From Candidatus Latescibacterota bacterium (GTDB lineage Bacteria; Latescibacterota; UBA2968), in contig OZ241986.1 in the NCBI GenBank assembly GCA_965204375.1, positions 3,424,001 to 3,488,000 of the forward strand: a DNA stretch of 64,000 bases, written 5' to 3'. Positions 29,815 through 35,113 of the stretch are shown here, piece by piece. The translations under genes and the position numbers were made by a program. A model generated the notes under the pieces. The model made no database searches, was not told the DNA's origin, and was given only the letters and a program-made list of their open reading frames with translations. Within the stretch, counting starts at the first letter, position 1, and each line of letters opens with the position of its first letter.

Positions 29815-30633
29815 ATGAACCACTTGAGCAAATCCATGCGGCAACAGTGGCAGGAACAGGGGTATTTACACCTCAAAAATGTAATCCCCAAAGACGAAGC
29901 AGCGGGATATCTCGACGCTGCCAATGAAGTCATCGCCGAGTACGAAGCCAAATATCCCGAAGTACTCGAAAAAGGCGTCTATACCATCATTCAAACGCTC
30001 TTTCGAACGAGTCGGATCGACGGATTGATGGACCACCCCAACTTATTTGGCACTATCCTCGACCTGATGGGACCTTATATCCAGATCATGGGATCGCAAA
30101 TTTACGTGCGTTATCCAAATGATAAATCCGATAACTTGATCGGCTGGCACACCGATGCTGGACGCTCACTGGCACAAATTCGGGTCACGCCAGACAGTTT
30201 GCCATTAAACTTCAAAATACAGTTCTTCCTCACCGATATTCCACACGAAAATTGTGCAAACTTCTGTCTGGTGCCCGGCAGCCATCGCCGCCCAATGCCC
30301 AAAGGATCCCGCAATGAAACACCCCCAGGCGCGATACAACTCATTGCCGAAGCGGGAGATTGCGCGATCTTTCCCAATACCATGTGGCACGCGGTCGCGC
30401 CAAATCACACAGACGTCGTACGGCGCAGCATCACCTTCCGGTATGGACAAATGTGGTGCAGACCCTACGATTACGAAAAGTGTCCCGAAGAAGTTCTATC
30501 CCGCATGACGCCTCGCCGCCGCCGGTTAATGGGTGACCTGGGCGAAAACTATACGGCGACAGACTATTTCAAGCCATCCGACCAGATAAAAGTCATCATG
30601 GATGGCCTGGACTTTAAGTGTCCCAATGCTTAA
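29815..30633 (+). CDS. PhyH family dioxygenase
   Basis: GWHTD, VPGSH, WHAVAPNHT..VRR. Confidence 0.9.
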   Translation: MNHLSKSMRQQWQEQGYLHLKNVIPKDEAAGYLDAANEVIAEYEAKYPEVLEKGVYTIIQTLFRTSRIDGLMDHPNLFGTILDLMGPYIQIMGSQIYVRYPNDKSDNLIGWHTDAGRSLAQIRVTPDSLPLNFKIQFFLTDIPHENCANFCLVPGSHRRPMPKGSRNETPPGAIQLIAEAGDCAIFPNTMWHAVAPNHTDVVRRSITFRYGQMWCRPYDYEKCPEEVLSRMTPRRRRLMGDLGENYTATDYFKPSDQIKVIMDGLDFKCPNA

Positions 30634-30647
30634 CAGACCAAAAAATT

Positions 30648-30679
30648 AAAAAGCCTCGGAACAATCCGGGGCTTTTTTT
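30648..30679 (+). terminator. Rho-independent terminator (possibly bidirectional)
   Basis: AAAAAGCCTCGGA-ACAA-TCCGGGGCTTTTTTT. Confidence 0.8.
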
Positions 30680-30689
30680 ATATCCATGC

Positions 30690-30716
30690 GACACTTTCGG
30701 GATGCAGCCTCGTCTT
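30690..30716 (+). promoter_or_regulatory. Candidate ECF-type (autoregulatory) promoter
   Basis: GACAC-16 nt-CGTCTT, matching the ECF -35 (A/C)AC and -10 CGT pattern, about 40 nt upstream of an ECF gene. Confidence 0.5.
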
Positions 30717-30756
30717 TTATTAAAACACGCGTGGATTGATTTCTTGTGGAGTATTC

Positions 30757-32157
30757 GTGGAACAAATTGAAGACAGCGCGCTCATCGCCCGGATTTTAGA
30801 CGGCGACCGCAAGGCATTCACAGTTCTGGTGCATCGCTATTCGCGATACGTGTATGCCCAAATTGCCCGATCTGTGCGACTGGTCGATGACGTGGAAGAC
30901 CTGGCTCAAATCGTATTTATCAAAGCGTACGAAAATCTGCATCAGCTACGCAAACCCAACCGATTTAGATCCTGGTTACACAGCATCGTACGCAACGCCG
31001 TCAACTCCCATCATCGCCGTCGAGCCGTGCAATTGCGACTGGAAGAAACATTTTATCCAGAACCTGCAACACACGAGGAAGAAGAAATCAAACATGTCGT
31101 ACGAACCGCGCTTCACATCCTATCGGCTGAACATCGCCAGGTAATTGCCCATCACTATTTCAAAGGGTATTCCTACGCGGAAACAGCCGACCTCCTGAAC
31201 CTCACGGTAGAAACCGTGCGCGGGCGTCTGAGGCGTGCGCGTCTCAAATTGAAAGGAGAGTTGCACAAAATGTCGGATATTCAAACACAAACTATGGAAC
31301 TGGACCGCGCGGACATGGACGCGCTCAAAAAAGTAATCGGTTTTGTAAGCGACGATGAAAAACGCCCAATCTTACAGGGCGTATGTCTCGACACAGGCGG
31401 TCGCGCGACTGCAACCAATGGGCATATCATGATCATTCGCACCTTAAAAAGCCTCTCGGAACTCGCCGCACCCATTATCATCGGACCCTGGTCAGACATT
31501 CAACTCCCCGAACAGGCCACATTGAAAATTGCGGAAACAACCGCAGAAATCCAGAGCAACGGCACAACCCTTCAGGTATCCTTAATCGAAGGTCCTTATG
31601 TCAAATACGAGCAGGTCATCCCCCAAGAAGATCCCGCAATGCGAATTTCCATCTCCTCGACTCTTCTCGCACACGCACTGAACTTACTACAAGATTTCAT
31701 GGAAGCGCGGCACCCAGAATCAGATACCTGGCAATACCGCCCCCGGATAGATCTGCACCTCTCGCCGTTGACCCAGACCATAACCTTTCTCACATCCCGA
31801 GATACAGGATATGCCCGAGAAGACAATGGCAAATACCAATATCTCCTCGACGTGAAAGATGACGCCTCGCCAGGAGGCGTTGCAGATTGGATATTTCAGG
31901 TCCCACTCAATGCCAAATTTGAAACACCATCAGAAGACACACTCAGGTTGAACGGGTCTGAAGAACGACCCGTTGTACACCGCTTTGCCGTGAACTTCGC
32001 GTATCTAAAACAGATCCTGCACGCTCTGGACTTTGAAGACAGCGATGAAATCACAATGGAATTTCGAGAACAGAACAAAGCTATTATCTTACGCACACCC
32101 CTGAATGCAGAATGGCTGGCATTGTTAATGCCAATCAGGCTGAAGTCAAAGGATTAA
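30757..32157 (+). CDS. ECF sigma-70 factor fused to a C-terminal beta-sliding-clamp (DnaN domain II-III)-like module
   Basis: Region 2 DVEDLAQIVFIKAY, FRSWLHSIVRN; region 4 HYFKGYSYAETADLLNLTVETVRGRLRRAR; then FVSDDEKRPILQGV, ATNGH, LIEGPYVKYEQVIP, VNFAYLKQIL, LLMPIRL. Confidence 0.85.
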   Translation: MEQIEDSALIARILDGDRKAFTVLVHRYSRYVYAQIARSVRLVDDVEDLAQIVFIKAYENLHQLRKPNRFRSWLHSIVRNAVNSHHRRRAVQLRLEETFYPEPATHEEEEIKHVVRTALHILSAEHRQVIAHHYFKGYSYAETADLLNLTVETVRGRLRRARLKLKGELHKMSDIQTQTMELDRADMDALKKVIGFVSDDEKRPILQGVCLDTGGRATATNGHIMIIRTLKSLSELAAPIIIGPWSDIQLPEQATLKIAETTAEIQSNGTTLQVSLIEGPYVKYEQVIPQEDPAMRISISSTLLAHALNLLQDFMEARHPESDTWQYRPRIDLHLSPLTQTITFLTSRDTGYAREDNGKYQYLLDVKDDASPGGVADWIFQVPLNAKFETPSEDTLRLNGSEERPVVHRFAVNFAYLKQILHALDFEDSDEITMEFREQNKAIILRTPLNAEWLALLMPIRLKSKD

Positions 32158-32607
32158 ATCACACCTGCATTCTCCAATGCCGCCTGAACCTGCCCCTCCT
32201 GCTCGGCAGACGGAGGTGGCATTGGCGGGCGCGGCACACCCCCATCACGCCCCTGCAACTTCATCGCATACTTGGTATTAGCAGGCAAATTATCATCAAA
32301 AATCGCATTCCAAATCGGCCACAGCCTTCCCCCGCTCAATTGCCGACTTCGTACTATCCGTAATAATCCCCGTAATCACTGGCACTCGCCCATCGGCTTC
32401 CTCCACTGCCCATTGCGTCAACTGCCTCACCTCATCATCCCCGAGCGTATGCCCCTCCCCCGTACTCCCCGTCACCGCCACCCCATGCACCTTTGCCGTC
32501 TCAATCATATACTGAATTTCCGCGCGAAACGCCCCCTCATCAAGTGAGTCATCCTCCCGAAACGGCGTTACCACAGGCGGCACAATCCCAAAAATAGAAT
32601 CCATCAT
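32154..32607 (-). pseudogene. Dihydrodipicolinate synthase (DapA/NAL) family pseudogene with an internal deletion
   Basis: N-terminal part (PPVVTPF, GSTGEG) and C-terminal part (KYAMKLQG...PRPP) lie in different frames; the central catalytic region is absent. Confidence 0.8.
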
Positions 32608-32614
32608 CTCCTCC

Positions 32615-32674
32615 CAATACCTTCTGTCAAAGCAACCACATCTAAAAGTTTGATGTCTTTATCCATATCACTTC
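32615..32674 (-). repeat. 60-bp direct repeat, a 5' remnant of a DUF4926 gene
   Basis: 56/60 identical to 33783-33842; reads MDKDIKLLDVVALTE. Confidence 0.85.
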
Positions 32675-32734
32675 ACTTTTTTTCTTGGAAAATATTCCCA
32701 TATGAGTATATTTTATGTCAAGAGGATATTATCG

Positions 32735-32992
32735 ATGAAGACAACACCATATTTTCGCAACCGAACACTCAAAGATCGGCCTGAATTACAAAAATATCTG
32801 AAAGAAATTGCAGATGCAATAGACCATTATCATGAGATTGAACAACAAGCAGATGGTCGCACACGGCGATGGATTTACATCTCTGACATTGACAAATACA
32901 TTCGCGTCATCGTCGAAGCCGATGGAGAGACAATCCACAATGCATTTCAGGATCGCACGTACACGCGACAGCAAAAAAGAAAGGATCCCTGA
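32735..32992 (+). CDS. Putative toxin partner of a DUF2283 protein
   Basis: MKTTPYF...QADGRTRRW...KYIRVIVEADGETIHNAFQDR pattern, 1 nt before a DUF2283 gene. Confidence 0.7.
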   Translation: MKTTPYFRNRTLKDRPELQKYLKEIADAIDHYHEIEQQADGRTRRWIYISDIDKYIRVIVEADGETIHNAFQDRTYTRQQKRKDP

Positions 32993-32993
32993 C

Positions 32994-33440
32994 ATGAAAT
33001 CCCTGGAATATTTTCCCGAAACGGATACGCTTCATATTACACTGAGTTTGACACCTGCATCTGGTGGCGCAGAAAATGCCGGAACAGAGGGCGAACATCA
33101 GGATATTATTTTATCCTATAATGATAACGATAAATTGGTATCTATTACAATTGAAAATGCCAGTAAAGGTGTGGATCTGAACGATATTCTTTCGGGACAC
33201 GCAAAAATTTTACATGGAAAAACAGAAGCCATTTATTCCATTTCAGAATTGGCAGCAAAATTGGACATTACACCACGCACATTGCGCAATACCATCCATT
33301 CGATGCGGGCTTCGGGAATAGACATAGGCAAACAATACGGCCCCACATATCCCATTATTCTATCTGAACCTGACGCGCAAAAAATTGTGCAATGGCGCAA
33401 TGAACACCCAAGAGGTAGGCCTAAATTGGCATCCGTTTAG
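32994..33440 (+). CDS. DUF2283 protein with C-terminal HTH
   Basis: YFPETDTLHITL...DIILSYNDNDKLVSITIENAS; C-terminal YSISELAAKLDITPRTLR and PRGRP. Confidence 0.75.
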   Translation: MKSLEYFPETDTLHITLSLTPASGGAENAGTEGEHQDIILSYNDNDKLVSITIENASKGVDLNDILSGHAKILHGKTEAIYSISELAAKLDITPRTLRNTIHSMRASGIDIGKQYGPTYPIILSEPDAQKIVQWRNEHPRGRPKLASV

Positions 33441-33600
33441 ACAGAACGCTCAGGCATTTTAAAAGCCTCCGAAATTTACAACATCACTTCTGTGATATAA
33501 ACGACACTGCAAATCTTCGGTTATAGCATTTAGGGAGGAACGCATGAAATCTCATTCTGTTTGGCAATATTTGGCACCAGTTGACCGCGAAACTTTCATT

Positions 33601-33834
33601 TCAGGTACTATTTGTTGGCTTTGTGATCGGCGCGTAGTGTAATACAATAAACTGGTTGGGACGTAAACCAACTGATTCATAGGTGCGACCTTCCCGATCA
33701 CAAAACTCAACTTCAAACGCTTGACCATCCGAAAGCACCTCAACAATTGTGCCAACCTGCCCCTGACAGAGGCCATACTCAGCAATATCTTCTGTCAATG
33801 CAACCACATATAAAAGTTTGTTGTCTTTATCCAT
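33601..33834 (-). CDS. DUF4926 domain protein
   Basis: VVALTEDI...GL..GQVGTIVEV....FEVEFCDREGRTY. Confidence 0.85.
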   Translation of the reverse strand: MDKDNKLLYVVALTEDIAEYGLCQGQVGTIVEVLSDGQAFEVEFCDREGRTYESVGLRPNQFIVLHYAPITKPTNST

Positions 33835-33894
33835 ATCACTTCGTGGTCAATAGTCAGTTGTAGATTACACCCTTGAGTTCGCCCACTCTTGAAG

Positions 33895-34920
33895 TCACAC
33901 CTGACGTCCTTCATTTATCTCATACCCGGCTTCCAATTCCCGTATCAGAAGATCCATCTGCTCAGGCTTTTTTTCGTACGTATTGAATGATTTTACAGCT
34001 TCTGTTGCAATCTCAACCGACCTCTTTTCCTTGTCAATACCGATATATCTCCTACCCTCACTTAATGCTGCCAAAGCAGTCGTCCCGCTTCCTATAAAGC
34101 AATCGAGCACAATTTCATCAGGTTCGGTAAATAGCTTAATAGCTCTGCGCGGCAATTCAACTGGAAACTTAGAATCATGATCTGAATTGCTGCGTACAGA
34201 AGGAATTTCCCATACGCCTCTGGAACCCCAATTTACCCATTCTTGTTTTGTAAGCCTTGATCGATCAACCTTCGTTATACCCGGCTTCCAAAAAATATAA
34301 ATATATTCTGACTCATCTACAGAACGGTATGATATGGTATGCCATCTCGAATTCTCCCAGGCGGCGTCTTTTACCCATATACGCCGGTCATATAAATAAA
34401 AACCTGCATCTGTAGCAGCTTTTTCTATTAGTCTCCCAACGAGATAAACTCTTGTTTGGGATTGATATTTTCCACCTCTAATATTGTTACCATTCAGCCG
34501 CCGATCTATTGTTTGCTCGCTGCACCCAAAGTGTTCTGCAAGTTTGTACCTATTCCAATCGGGATGCTGTTGTACAACCTTAAGTATGTCTTCTTTTGTA
34601 AGATTAATTTTTCGACGAGAAATATTTTCCGCCATAATTTTGGGCATTGTCTCATCCTTAAAACACAATATATCGGCAATATTGATCACCAAAAATCCAC
34701 CGGGTTTCACAATGGGAAAATGTAGCTTAATCACCTCTCGTAGAAGATTCTCCCAATCTTCAAATGATAAATCCTTCTCGTAATCTTTCCCGACATAATA
34801 CGGAGGCGACCAGATACTGAGCGCAATAGATTCCCGCTCAATTCTCCCCAAAAGCTCCTGCGAATCGCCGTGATATATCGCGTTTGGTGTAAGTGACTTA
34901 AACAAGTTTACGATTGCCAT
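33895..34920 (-). CDS. Beta-class N4-cytosine DNA methyltransferase with inserted HTH (M.BglI-like)
   Basis: Catalytic WSPPY precedes SAM-binding DCFIGSGTT; insert YKLAEHFGCSEQTIDRRLNGNNIRGGKY; the M.BglI resemblance is from memory. Confidence 0.88.
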   Translation of the reverse strand: MAIVNLFKSLTPNAIYHGDSQELLGRIERESIALSIWSPPYYVGKDYEKDLSFEDWENLLREVIKLHFPIVKPGGFLVINIADILCFKDETMPKIMAENISRRKINLTKEDILKVVQQHPDWNRYKLAEHFGCSEQTIDRRLNGNNIRGGKYQSQTRVYLVGRLIEKAATDAGFYLYDRRIWVKDAAWENSRWHTISYRSVDESEYIYIFWKPGITKVDRSRLTKQEWVNWGSRGVWEIPSVRSNSDHDSKFPVELPRRAIKLFTEPDEIVLDCFIGSGTTALAALSEGRRYIGIDKEKRSVEIATEAVKSFNTYEKKPEQMDLLIRELEAGYEINEGRQV

Positions 34921-35113
34921 GACCCTATACACTCCTGTTTTTTCAACATAGACAGAAATTTATAAGCTGTCAACCATCCACAGGCGTTATATCCCACCGC
35001 AAACCACAACCCTATTTTGAACCGTCTGGCGTTCGTGTTGCAGATTTTAAAAAAGGAATTATTTTACACAGGCTCAATTCTCAGCACTCAGAAACCTTTT
35101 TGGGAGGACTACC

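Follow-up and report, generated by a model that had tools for sequence, protein, structure and literature searches.

A gene of a Candidatus Latescibacterota bacterium encodes a protein in which a complete ECF sigma factor (sigma2 and sigma4, residues 1-176) continues in frame into a module homologous to domains II and III of the beta sliding clamp DnaN, with domain I missing. This sigma-clamp fusion had been recognized by eye in a first-pass annotation of the window (the whole analysed stretch of DNA, 64,000 nucleotides long), and its architecture was confirmed by profile, alignment and structure comparisons. The gene has a transcription unit of its own and, as judged from its sequence, probably a second translation start at the boundary between the two parts. 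The features of the locus are collected in Table 1.

Table 1. Sequence features of the sigma-clamp locus, in window coordinates.
Feature	Coordinates	Strand	Details
Intrinsic terminator (hairpin and U-tract), ends the upstream PhyH-family gene (29815-30633)	30648..30679	+	
ECF-type promoter	30688..30715	+	-35-like GCGACACTTT (30688-30697), 13-nt spacer, -10-like CGTCT (30711-30715)
Shine-Dalgarno core GGAG	30748..30751	+	5 nt ahead of the GTG start
Sigma-clamp fusion CDS, 466 aa	30757..32157	+	GTG start, TAA stop
Sigma-70 region 2, residues 24-90	30826..31026	+	PF04542 (Sigma70_r2), E 4.8e-13, 49.1 bits vs cut-off 24
Sigma-70 region 4, residues 115-165	31099..31251	+	PF08281 (Sigma70_r4_2), E 1.2e-12, 47.7 bits vs cut-off 25.7
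Putative internal start	31255..31272	+	GGAG core 31255-31258 (codons 167-168), 11 nt, ATG of Met172 31270-31272
Clamp-derived module, residues 177-466, homologous to DnaN domains II-III, without domain I	31285..32154	+	Profile, alignment and structure matches
Dispersed 37-nt hairpin repeat copy, in-frame insertion	31949..31985	+	Some strains only

The amino-terminal part carries the two conserved regions of a minimal sigma factor. Besides the Pfam matches to regions 2 and 4, TIGR02937 scores 90.3 bits on this part against a cut-off of 42.9, and all NCBIfam equivalog models score far under their own cut-offs on the protein. No region-1 or region-3 family appears in the fusion protein in Pfam at E<=10, and the linker between sigma2 and sigma4 is short (residues 91-114). 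By these sequence characters residues 1-176 are a genuine ECF (group 4) sigma factor. The segment VQLR[LF]E (residues 91-96, with invariant V91-Q92 and conserved R94) was considered as an intramolecular clamp-binding motif and dropped as unsupported; neither positions 4/5 nor positions 5/6 form a hydrophobic pair, and the segment sits in a predicted helix (residues 67-99).

The remainder of the protein is related to beta clamps by every comparison made. The five DnaN-like motifs proposed from the translation alone were all found, at residues 196-209, 219-223, 276-289, 412-424 and 456-462. With the extension alone as query, TIGR00663 (dnaN) gives a match at E 2.4e-14, in which query residues 12-134 align with model positions 136-269 of 367; its score of 53.1 bits stays below the curated cut-off of 137.65. 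Pfam had been expected to report DNA_pol3_beta_2 and DNA_pol3_beta_3 without the domain-I family; the latter, PF00712, is indeed absent at E<=10, whereas the other two are reached only below threshold (PF02767, E 0.016, 17.3 bits; PF02768, E 0.025, 15.3 bits; cut-off 27). A profile of 16 extensions searched against the PDB retrieved 45 sequences at E<=0.01, all of them beta clamps (best 4.2e-14), and hhalign aligned the extension profile to residues 128-366 of E. coli DnaN at E 2.5e-8 and to the genome's own DnaN at E 3e-18. A canonical dnaN occurs once in the genome, at another place, and no DnaN-like sequence besides this gene and the fusion is present. These alignments identify the module as a descendant of the lineage's own beta sliding clamp that has kept domains II-III and lacks domain I.

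Structure prediction gives the same assignment. The AlphaFold model has a pLDDT of 80-92 across most of residues 177-462, bacterial beta clamps make up all 40 of the Foldseek matches listed for it (E ~1e-14), and VIA-align superimposes residues 177-462 on E. coli beta 125-366 with a Z-score of 19-23 and an rmsd of 2.2-2.5 A over ~230 residues. The full-length model reaches a pTM of 0.57, so that the packing of the sigma part against the module is not confidently placed. Insertions specific to the family, RHP..W.Y.P among them, are found in domain III. In some strains the module has ~12 further residues, RLNGSEERPVVH (397-408), which a copy of the dispersed 37-nt repeat contributes to a loop modelled with low confidence. 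The calculated pI of the module is 4.5-5.4 in 15 of 16 members, a character that real clamps share and that is therefore non-discriminating. In the ESM Atlas, the nearest clusters are short proteins (~190-245 aa) labelled 'putative DNA polymerase III beta', for which Fusobacteriota and phage taxa are named.

The fusion is a conserved family. It is present in 68 of 168 Latescibacterota genomes, with one copy each, and is conserved down to ~35% identity. At least 93% of its length is covered by 29 of 37 database relatives, 33 of the 34 loci retrieved continue into the clamp part, and in a library of 1.84 billion proteins sigma domains accompany 36 of the 59 non-canonical matches to the profile, down to E ~1e-14. 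MerR-DnaN-like fusions, which the first-pass annotation named as annotated in actinobacteria, are not among these 59 matches, in a scan that was not directed at them. Within the genus, the fusion is missing from 6 of 20 other genomes, five of which are 97-99% complete; the gene is therefore accessory. The Latescibacterota are uncultured, and the occurrences recorded here come from sponge, coral and marine metagenomes.

Metagenomic origin and the sub-threshold Pfam scores of the clamp domains could suggest a chimeric assembly, or a pseudogenized dnaN duplicate that by chance shares the frame of a sigma gene. All source genomes are metagenome-assembled, yet many of them are single-contig, and a search of the phylum genomes with an extension-only profile places the module in open frames of 422-510 aa in 64 of the 66 genomes that carry it. 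There is no stop or frameshift between the halves, and contigs from independent sequencing runs cross the junction unbroken. The mean column identity is 56% over the full length (22 sequences) and the extension is conserved together with the sigma part (0.59 versus 0.69). Taken with the confident fold of the module, these observations make an artefact or a decaying gene extremely improbable.

Modules of 260-290 aa that seem to stand alone are mostly fragments, as they cluster with members of 433-466 aa and their contigs measure ~1-3.5 kb. Candidates for genuine stand-alone modules are P0058, which has 284 aa and a longest contig of 46.5 kb, and two forms with a SEC-C tail. A metagenome scan with P0058 found nothing, and none of the 168 representative genomes of the phylum contains a module without the sigma part.

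The coding sequence is a single uninterrupted open reading frame, with an alternative upstream TTG start at 30736. Orthologs begin at the residue encoded by GTG-30757, and a GGAG core precedes this codon here as GGAGG precedes the start codon in the orthologs of other clades, so that the gene boundaries given by the first-pass annotation are right. The terminator of the preceding gene has a predicted RNA fold of -18.8 kcal/mol (z -5.0; 0 of 200 shuffled sequences folded equally well) and its hairpin recurs in orthologs of the same clade. A simple consensus terminator scan does not list this hairpin, which was confirmed by folding. Given this terminator upstream, the sigma-clamp gene is a stand-alone transcription unit. 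Contigs from RNA libraries lie over the gene (X19 over the whole stretch, X14 over 30799-31598); as contigs only, they are not proof of transcription.

A promoter of the ECF type is found in register upstream of the gene across most clades, despite differing upstream genes. Its form in clade A is GCGACACTTT-N13-CGTCT and in the other clades GGATACTTT-N13-CATCT or close variants; at two loci (L027 and L030) no such element is evident. The possession of its own conserved ECF-type promoter makes it probable that the gene is autoregulated. The exact motif occurs once in the 6.34-Mb genome. Among five genomes of another clade, three hold one exact copy, located at the gene's own promoter, and none of the five has a copy elsewhere. 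With up to 2 mismatches, 31 matches on two strands compare with 23 on one strand of the reversed-genome control, which is no enrichment. The regulon search by promoter motif in these six genomes thus gave no target gene beyond the gene's own promoter.

The junction between sigma4 and the module contains a putative internal translation start. A GGAG core lies 5-11 nt upstream of the Met172 ATG in 31 of 31 orthologs, and no other in-frame ATG has a GGAG so placed throughout the set. In other clades the last base of codon 168 closes the core, which leaves 9 nt to the ATG. All 30 orthologs with Glu at this codon use GAG, the single one with Ala uses GCG, and codon 167 is GGA, GAG or AAG, encoding Gly, Glu or Lys. 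Seven other conserved Glu or Lys columns, used as controls, mix synonymous codons. The GGAG is thus kept at the nucleotide level while the encoded residues vary, which points to an internal start. Even in distant fusions a Met is found at the end of sigma4, no more than 12 residues from the module, in 30 of 32 cases. Initiation at this site would probably yield a free clamp-like module of ~295 aa beside the full-length fusion, so that the single product assumed at first pass probably becomes two. No conserved structure was predicted by RNA folding around the site, and a GGAG-ATG arrangement at the boundary of domains I and II is absent from E. coli dnaN and from the genome's own dnaN.

Met172 could be conserved for protein reasons, and a GGAG within a gene could alternatively be a pause site. 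Both possibilities belong to an explanation in which the extension is a structural appendage only, a scaffold for stability, RNA polymerase contact or sigma dimerization that senses no ligand, and in which the GGAG and ATG at the junction are a by-product of the encoded residues or a translational pause that aids folding. The last sigma4 helix of the model (residues 151-172) ends with Met172, four residues after Glu168, a spacing that fits one face of the helix, and the conservation of the Met is therefore possibly protein-driven. Extensions of the ECF42 type are described, in parts of PMC8999054, as needed for activity through protein interaction, and the promoter-motif searches have yielded no regulon, nor has a ligand been found. 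Against this stands the synonymous-site conservation of codons 167-168, which persists over three amino acids while the seven control columns drift and is unlikely to arise from protein constraint alone. The residues of the clamp's peptide cleft are also selectively kept over ~65% sequence divergence. A purely structural role is accordingly rather improbable.

In the E. coli clamp, a cleft between domains II and III serves protein contacts, with roles assigned to R152, T172, P242, R246, V247, M362 and P363 in the parts of PMC3335792 and PMC7261172 that treat it. The cleft was mapped onto the fusion through the hhalign alignment to E. coli DnaN, and conservation was read from the ortholog alignments. 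The residues of the cleft are largely preserved, five of the seven named ones being retained (R152, T172, V247, M362 and P363). R152 corresponds to an invariant R203, T172 to T220 (Thr, Ser or Cys), V247 to V287 (invariant in 22 sequences, Ala in one clade), M362 to M458 (at least 90%) and P363 to an invariant P459. P242 is replaced by Val and R246 is variable. R365 (R461) and N320 (N413) are invariant as well, and H175 and R176 are each retained in some clades only. The cleft motifs are the most conserved motifs of clamps generally; part of their retention may therefore reflect the fold and not binding.

Fusion to a sensor domain makes an ECF sigma factor a one-component system of the sigma world, and few of the extension types are understood. 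ECF41 (SnoaL-like), ECF42 (TPR) and ECF238 (Cys-rich) have, like the fusion, a folded C-terminal domain behind the sigma2-sigma4 core, and fused extensions of this kind provide the precedent for replacing anti-sigma factors (sections of PMC7826278, PMC8999054). According to the same sections, they also resemble the fusion in having no adjacent anti-sigma gene and an ECF-type, probably autoregulated promoter. The first-pass annotation had reported no anti-sigma-like gene next to the fusion, and this is true of the locus and of 33 related loci, across which no conserved neighbour gene of any sort was found. The difference lies in the extension, which has ~290 aa derived from beta-clamp domains II-III in place of a SnoaL, TPR or Cys-rich domain; no SnoaL-like, TPR or Cys-rich extension family was detected in Pfam at E<=10, in either the protein or the extension alone. 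The main texts of PMC7826278 and PMC8999054 mention neither clamp, DnaN nor polymerase III, and in line with the novelty suggested at first pass, no description of a clamp-type ECF extension was found in the literature searched. Nor do the portions of that literature consulted describe, for ECF41, ECF42 or ECF238, an internal start conserved at the junction. DnaN itself, with the genome's own copy closest, shares with the fusion the sequence and fold of domains II-III, the cleft motifs and the C-terminal MP.RL end. The fusion differs from it by the missing domain I, a score below the TIGR00663 cut-off, the insertions in domain III and the joined sigma factor.

By analogy with these systems, the fusion is tentatively read as a one-component ECF sigma factor that would work like ECF41 and ECF42, which carry SnoaL and TPR extensions; its built-in regulatory, partner-binding domain would be the clamp-derived module. 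The retained hydrophobic cleft between the two domains of the module would bind a protein segment and thereby set sigma activity. The partner may belong to the sigma or RNA polymerase complex, or it may be a peptide in another protein that resembles a clamp-binding motif. Acting in trans, the free module would target the same partner, whether by competing or by joining the assembly as a subunit. That such a pocket senses clamp-binding proteins, antibiotics, toxins or replication stress, as proposed at first pass, would be speculative. This reading is favoured here with somewhat less than even confidence.

Two-domain clamp proteins have natural counterparts. A shorter product of E. coli dnaN, beta*, reportedly arises from an internal start and comprises approximately domains II-III; it is likewise a natural two-domain clamp fragment, initiated internally near the same domain boundary, and differs in being fused to nothing. 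The herpesvirus proteins UL42 and UL44 consist of two clamp-fold domains and act as a monomer or a C-shaped dimer. They provide a precedent for a two-domain clamp-fold protein that works without a closed ring, and differ in serving viral DNA polymerases as accessory proteins, unconnected with any sigma factor. In real beta clamps, domain I forms the ring-closing interface with domain III. To our knowledge, links between clamps and transcription are known only in phages T4 and Mu.

These phage systems suggest another explanation, in which the module and its free copies would assemble on DNA, as a PCNA-like ring or as a C-shaped partial clamp, or else dock onto the replisome, and so couple transcription from the promoters of the sigma factor to replication or to DNA ends. 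In T4, gp45 encircles upstream DNA and tethers RNA polymerase via the C-terminal motifs of the sigma-like gp55 and the co-activator gp33, as set out in parts of PMC7892883. Clamps thus activate transcription in T4 and, according to excerpts of PMC12867686, in phage Mu, where the C protein is linked to the host beta clamp; common to both and to the fusion is a transcription factor physically linked to a clamp fold. The phage contacts are non-covalent and use short clamp-binding motifs on a complete loaded ring, whereas here a clamp-fold module follows sigma4 covalently in a cellular gene. By functional analogy only, the fusion would be the cellular equivalent of T4 gp45-gp55 and of Mu C bound to the host clamp, with the partners joined covalently. 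The two-domain unit shares its topology with the trimeric ring clamps, since PCNA and T4 gp45 are built of two-domain subunits whose rings close as trimers with six domains per ring (passages of PMC9690074). Subunits free of sigma would come from the conserved putative internal start, which would settle the question of stoichiometry, and the cleft used by clamp loaders and partners is retained between domains II and III. The nearest downstream genes in one clade include HU and a pyrimidine 5'-nucleotidase, which is a weak indication; in most clades the neighbours are not replication genes. The missing domain I and the family-specific insertions in domain III also speak against a clamp on DNA. 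The label 'ring-less' in the first-pass annotation is an assumption, and a homotrimer prediction with three copies of the extension (score 0.01 against a mark of 0.42) is uninformative for or against a ring. A clamp-tethered sigma factor therefore appears unlikely, and its specific form, a hetero-oligomeric PCNA-like clamp of sigma-bearing and free subunits riding on or gripping DNA, decidedly doubtful.

An extension derived from the replication clamp would be a new ECF extension type, and the fusion would be the first cellular protein, within the literature searched, to unite a sigma factor and a sliding-clamp fold in one polypeptide. Its probable internal start would represent a rare design, in which one reading frame yields a regulator and, in addition, its regulatory domain in free form. 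As a small system of one gene and one promoter, it is tractable in a heterologous host although the lineage is uncultured. If the hetero-oligomeric clamp were true, it would be a cellular, built-in version of the T4-style 'sliding-clamp-activated sigma', with a transcription programme tied to replication or DNA-end status. Should the cleft still accept clamp-binding motifs, the protein could serve as a reporter of the replisome's state or of that of clamp-binding proteins.

The plus-strand frame runs without interruption from either a TTG at 30736 or a GTG at 30757 to 32157. Orthologs have their first residue at the position of the GTG, which lies 5 nt after a GGAG; the start is therefore placed there and the product comprises 466 aa, in agreement with the first-pass annotation, whose five quoted motifs were all recovered (residues 196-209, 219-223, 276-289, 412-424 and 456-462). 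The complete ECF sigma factor that it described is likewise borne out: besides the two Pfam sigma domains (see table), with no region 3 family listed by Pfam for the fusion, TIGR02937 (ECF-type sigma) reaches 90.3 bits (cut-off 42.9), and by these membership tests the protein is an ECF sigma factor.

For the remaining 290 residues, matches to DNA_pol3_beta_2 and DNA_pol3_beta_3 without the domain-I family had been predicted. The domain-I family is indeed without a match and the other two do match, but both sub-threshold. TIGR00663 (dnaN) aligns with E 2.4e-14 over its positions 136-269 and the C-terminal end. A profile built from 16 extensions matched 45 PDB sequences, beta clamps only (best 4.2e-14), and hhalign places this profile on E. 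coli DnaN residues 128-366. In an AlphaFold2 model of the fusion (mean pLDDT 77.8, pTM 0.57; low confidence at 94-110, 173-175 and 394-403), residues 177-462 superpose by VIA-align on E. coli beta 125-366 (Z 19-23, rmsd 2.2-2.5 A, ~230 residues), and Foldseek returned bacterial beta clamps in 40 of the 40 matches listed. Since sequence profiles, hhalign, Foldseek and VIA-align agree, the module is a homolog of clamp domains II-III; the sigma factor occupies the place of domain I, which is absent. The fusion differs from DnaN proper in this missing domain and in scores under the family cut-offs. Several family-specific motifs have no DnaN counterpart (RHP 318-320, Y327, Y352, W378, F380); they are as strongly conserved as the cleft residues and sited in or around an enlarged part of the module's domain III.

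Features of the sigma-clamp gene, its surroundings and two related loci (window positions unless residues or a locus are named)
Feature	Position	Strand	Remarks
Terminator hairpin	30648-30679		strong; ends upstream gene; -18.8 kcal/mol, z -5.0
Candidate promoter, -35-like GCGACACTTT	30688-30697		after terminator; 13 nt to -10-like element
Candidate promoter, -10-like CGTCT	30711-30715
ACGCG(T)	30727-30732
Sigma-clamp fusion gene	30757-32157	+	466 aa
Sigma70_r2	residues 24-90		Pfam, above cut-off
Sigma70_r4_2	residues 115-165		Pfam, above cut-off
37-nt hairpin repeat	31949-31985		in frame within module; adds ~12 residues, RLNGSEERPVVH, low-confidence loop
DHDPS-family gene	32296-32607	-	103 aa
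Lower-GC stretch	32600-35000		GC 0.45-0.47, small ORFs
ORF, DNA methyltransferase by eye	33895-34932		345 aa
ECF sigma fused to TPR repeats	L030: 6114-7817	-
ECF sigma fused to TPR repeats	L030: 9746-11650	+
ECF fragment fused to pentapeptide repeats	L016: 6826-7581	-

All genomes considered are metagenome-assembled, and the lineage is uncultured. A word-indexed search returned 37 relatives, 29 of them with a query coverage of 93% or more and identities from 93% down to 37%. Contigs taken from one genome per species gave 34 loci, titled Latescibacterota/Latescibacteria (28), Gemmatimonadota-type (4) or 'uncultured bacterium' (1); the clamp part is reached in 33, and the sigma-only match is a Spirochaetales record. 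Within the phylum, 68 of 168 representative genomes hold one full-length match each (E<=1e-50), with carriers in families f1 (14/30), f2 (18/22), f3 (2/3), f4 (32/76) and f7 (1/1) and in none of 35 genomes from nine other families. The gene is accessory, since it is present in 14 of 20 other genomes of the window's genus and five of the six lacking it are 97-99% complete. The extension profile alone matched 66 genomes; 64 matches fall in open frames of 422-510 aa, and of the other two one is degraded and one is truncated where its contig stops. In a library of 1.84 billion proteins it matched 43 at E<=1e-30; among 59 non-canonical matches scanned with Pfam, sigma domains were found in 36, to a profile E of ~1e-14, and the others had no Pfam family (17), a C-terminal SEC-C (2), a clamp domain alone (1) or were canonical DnaN (3), short entries being mostly pieces of fusions. 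Because of this spread, and because contigs from independent sequencing runs span the sigma/clamp junction unbroken, the fusion is an old, diversified family with both halves in one frame, as first read, and an artefact is essentially excluded.

Two library proteins on short metagenome contigs, P0077 (348 aa) and P0116 (317 aa), are two-domain clamp-like modules with no sigma part and a C-terminal SEC-C zinc-binding motif. Short proteins (~190-245 aa) labelled 'putative DNA polymerase III beta' occur in ESM Atlas clusters for which Fusobacteriota and tailed phages are given among the taxa; clamp-like proteins in truncated form may be found more widely. Relatives of the locus (window positions 30500-32300) at 85-95% identity occur in coral and sponge metatranscriptome libraries (runs X14, X19 and X20), and further ones in sponge, coral and marine metagenomes, which suggests a host-associated marine habitat for the window's clade.

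The 6.34-Mb, one-contig genome encodes a single canonical dnaN (267.7 bits), far from the fusion, which is the sole other DnaN-like sequence. The extension profile aligns with this DnaN at E 3e-18 and with that of E. coli at 2.5e-8, and the LIEGPYV.YEQVIPQ stretch and LLMP.RL end are common to the fusion and the genome's own DnaN. The simplest history would be that dnaN was duplicated in the lineage and that one copy lost domain I and became joined to the end of an ECF sigma. A loose pattern finds 19 copies of the in-frame hairpin repeat in the genome, 5 of them on the plus and 14 on the minus strand, and their arms co-vary. Some close orthologs carry the insertion, whereas others lack it, as do all other clades. 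In many unrelated contigs the hairpin segment is the only part that matches. The repeat resembles the palindromic elements inside Rickettsia genes.

At the junction, the final sigma4 helix of the model ends in Met172, which is invariant in a 22-sequence alignment. Its ATG follows GGAG by 5-11 nt in 31 of 31 orthologous genes and is the only in-frame ATG so placed across all of them, and genes of the window's clade hold just 2-3 GGAG tetramers in their entire 1.4 kb; the main start has the same Shine-Dalgarno type. Codon 167 (Gly, Glu or Lys) is always GGA, GAG or AAG and at codon 168 all 30 Glu are written GAG and the lone Ala GCG, so that the GGAG core is always kept. Seven control columns mix synonymous codons (conserved Glu, GAA:GAG 22:8, 16:13, 16:12, 23:3, 14:14 and 9:18; conserved Lys, AAA:AAG 17:13; overall usage GAG 0.45, AAG 0.34, GGA 0.24) and these two do not, which shows selection on nucleotides at codons 167-168. 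No conserved RNA structure was predicted at the junction. Of 32 more distant fusions, 30 have a Met no more than 12 residues from the module, and the other two have one slightly farther upstream. From these patterns we infer that a free module of ~295 aa (Met172 to Asp466) is probably produced beside the full-length protein; the alternative is a pause site, with Glu168 and Met172, on one face of the helix, conserved at the protein level.

Flanking genes vary by clade: a PhyH-family dioxygenase upstream and the DHDPS-family gene downstream on the opposite strand in the window's clade, a transglutaminase-like gene upstream and a UMPH-1-type nucleotidase and HU downstream on the opposite strand in another, ffh and a PASTA-domain gene in a third. 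No anti-sigma-like protein recurs among the neighbours of the compared loci, consistent with the initial remark that none is adjacent. The candidate promoter has counterparts in register in other clades (GGATACTTT-N13-CATCT or near variants) and is not evident in two related loci, L027 and L030. Its sole exact genome copy is at the fusion gene, in a different clade 3 of 5 genomes likewise have the motif a single time, in front of this gene, and a genome motif scan found no further promoter targets; autoregulation by a candidate ECF-type promoter, as usual for ECF sigmas, would fit. The ACGCG(T) element is conserved at the same place in related loci L014-L029; in several clades it stands ~11-15 nt after the -10-like CGTCT/CATCT, and it may serve as an operator or belong to the initially transcribed region. 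The DHDPS-family gene, 295 aa long in relatives, is shortened to 103 aa in the window, where it looks as if truncated by an insertion, namely the neighbouring lower-GC stretch with its small ORFs and the 345-aa ORF. In L030 the sigma-clamp gene lies between two further ECF fusions, and genomes of relatives seem rich in these.

The E. coli clamp binds peptides in a groove between domains II and III that includes R152, T172, P242, R246, V247, M362 and P363, as described in parts of PMC3335792 and PMC7261172. Counting along the hhalign alignment gives R203, T220, V282, Q286, V287, M458 and P459 as the respective equivalents. R203 and P459 are invariant, M458 is kept in at least 90%, V287, unvarying in 22 sequences, is Ala in one clade, position 220 is Thr, Ser or Cys, and the P242 and R246 equivalents are altered. 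N413 and R461, equivalents of E. coli N320 and R365, which also have roles in that clamp, are invariant too. The cleft thus appears largely, not fully, preserved, much as the first-pass annotation had it. Known ECF extensions operate via conformational change or protein interaction, according to sections of PMC8999054. We tentatively favour a one-component ECF whose clamp-derived module would be the regulatory domain and bind partners through the retained cleft, with the free copy acting in trans. In a bolder alternative, the module and its free copies would assemble on DNA into a ring or a partial clamp, or dock to the replisome, as a covalent analogue of T4 gp45-gp55 (PMC7892883) and of the pairing of phage Mu C and the host clamp (PMC12867686). 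Both this and a purely structural role for the module are rather improbable.

The fusion is best placed among ECF sigmas with fused regulatory domains, and its extension is not of the ECF41, ECF42 or ECF238 type. E. coli beta* and herpesvirus UL42/UL44 offer further comparisons. Full-text literature searches returned no clamp-like ECF extension, and none is mentioned in the main texts of the 2021 ECF re-classification (PMC7826278) and a 2022 review (PMC8999054), though the supplements of the former, which list every group's extension, could contain one. Two features make the family unusual: the replication-clamp origin of its extension and a probable second product by internal start.
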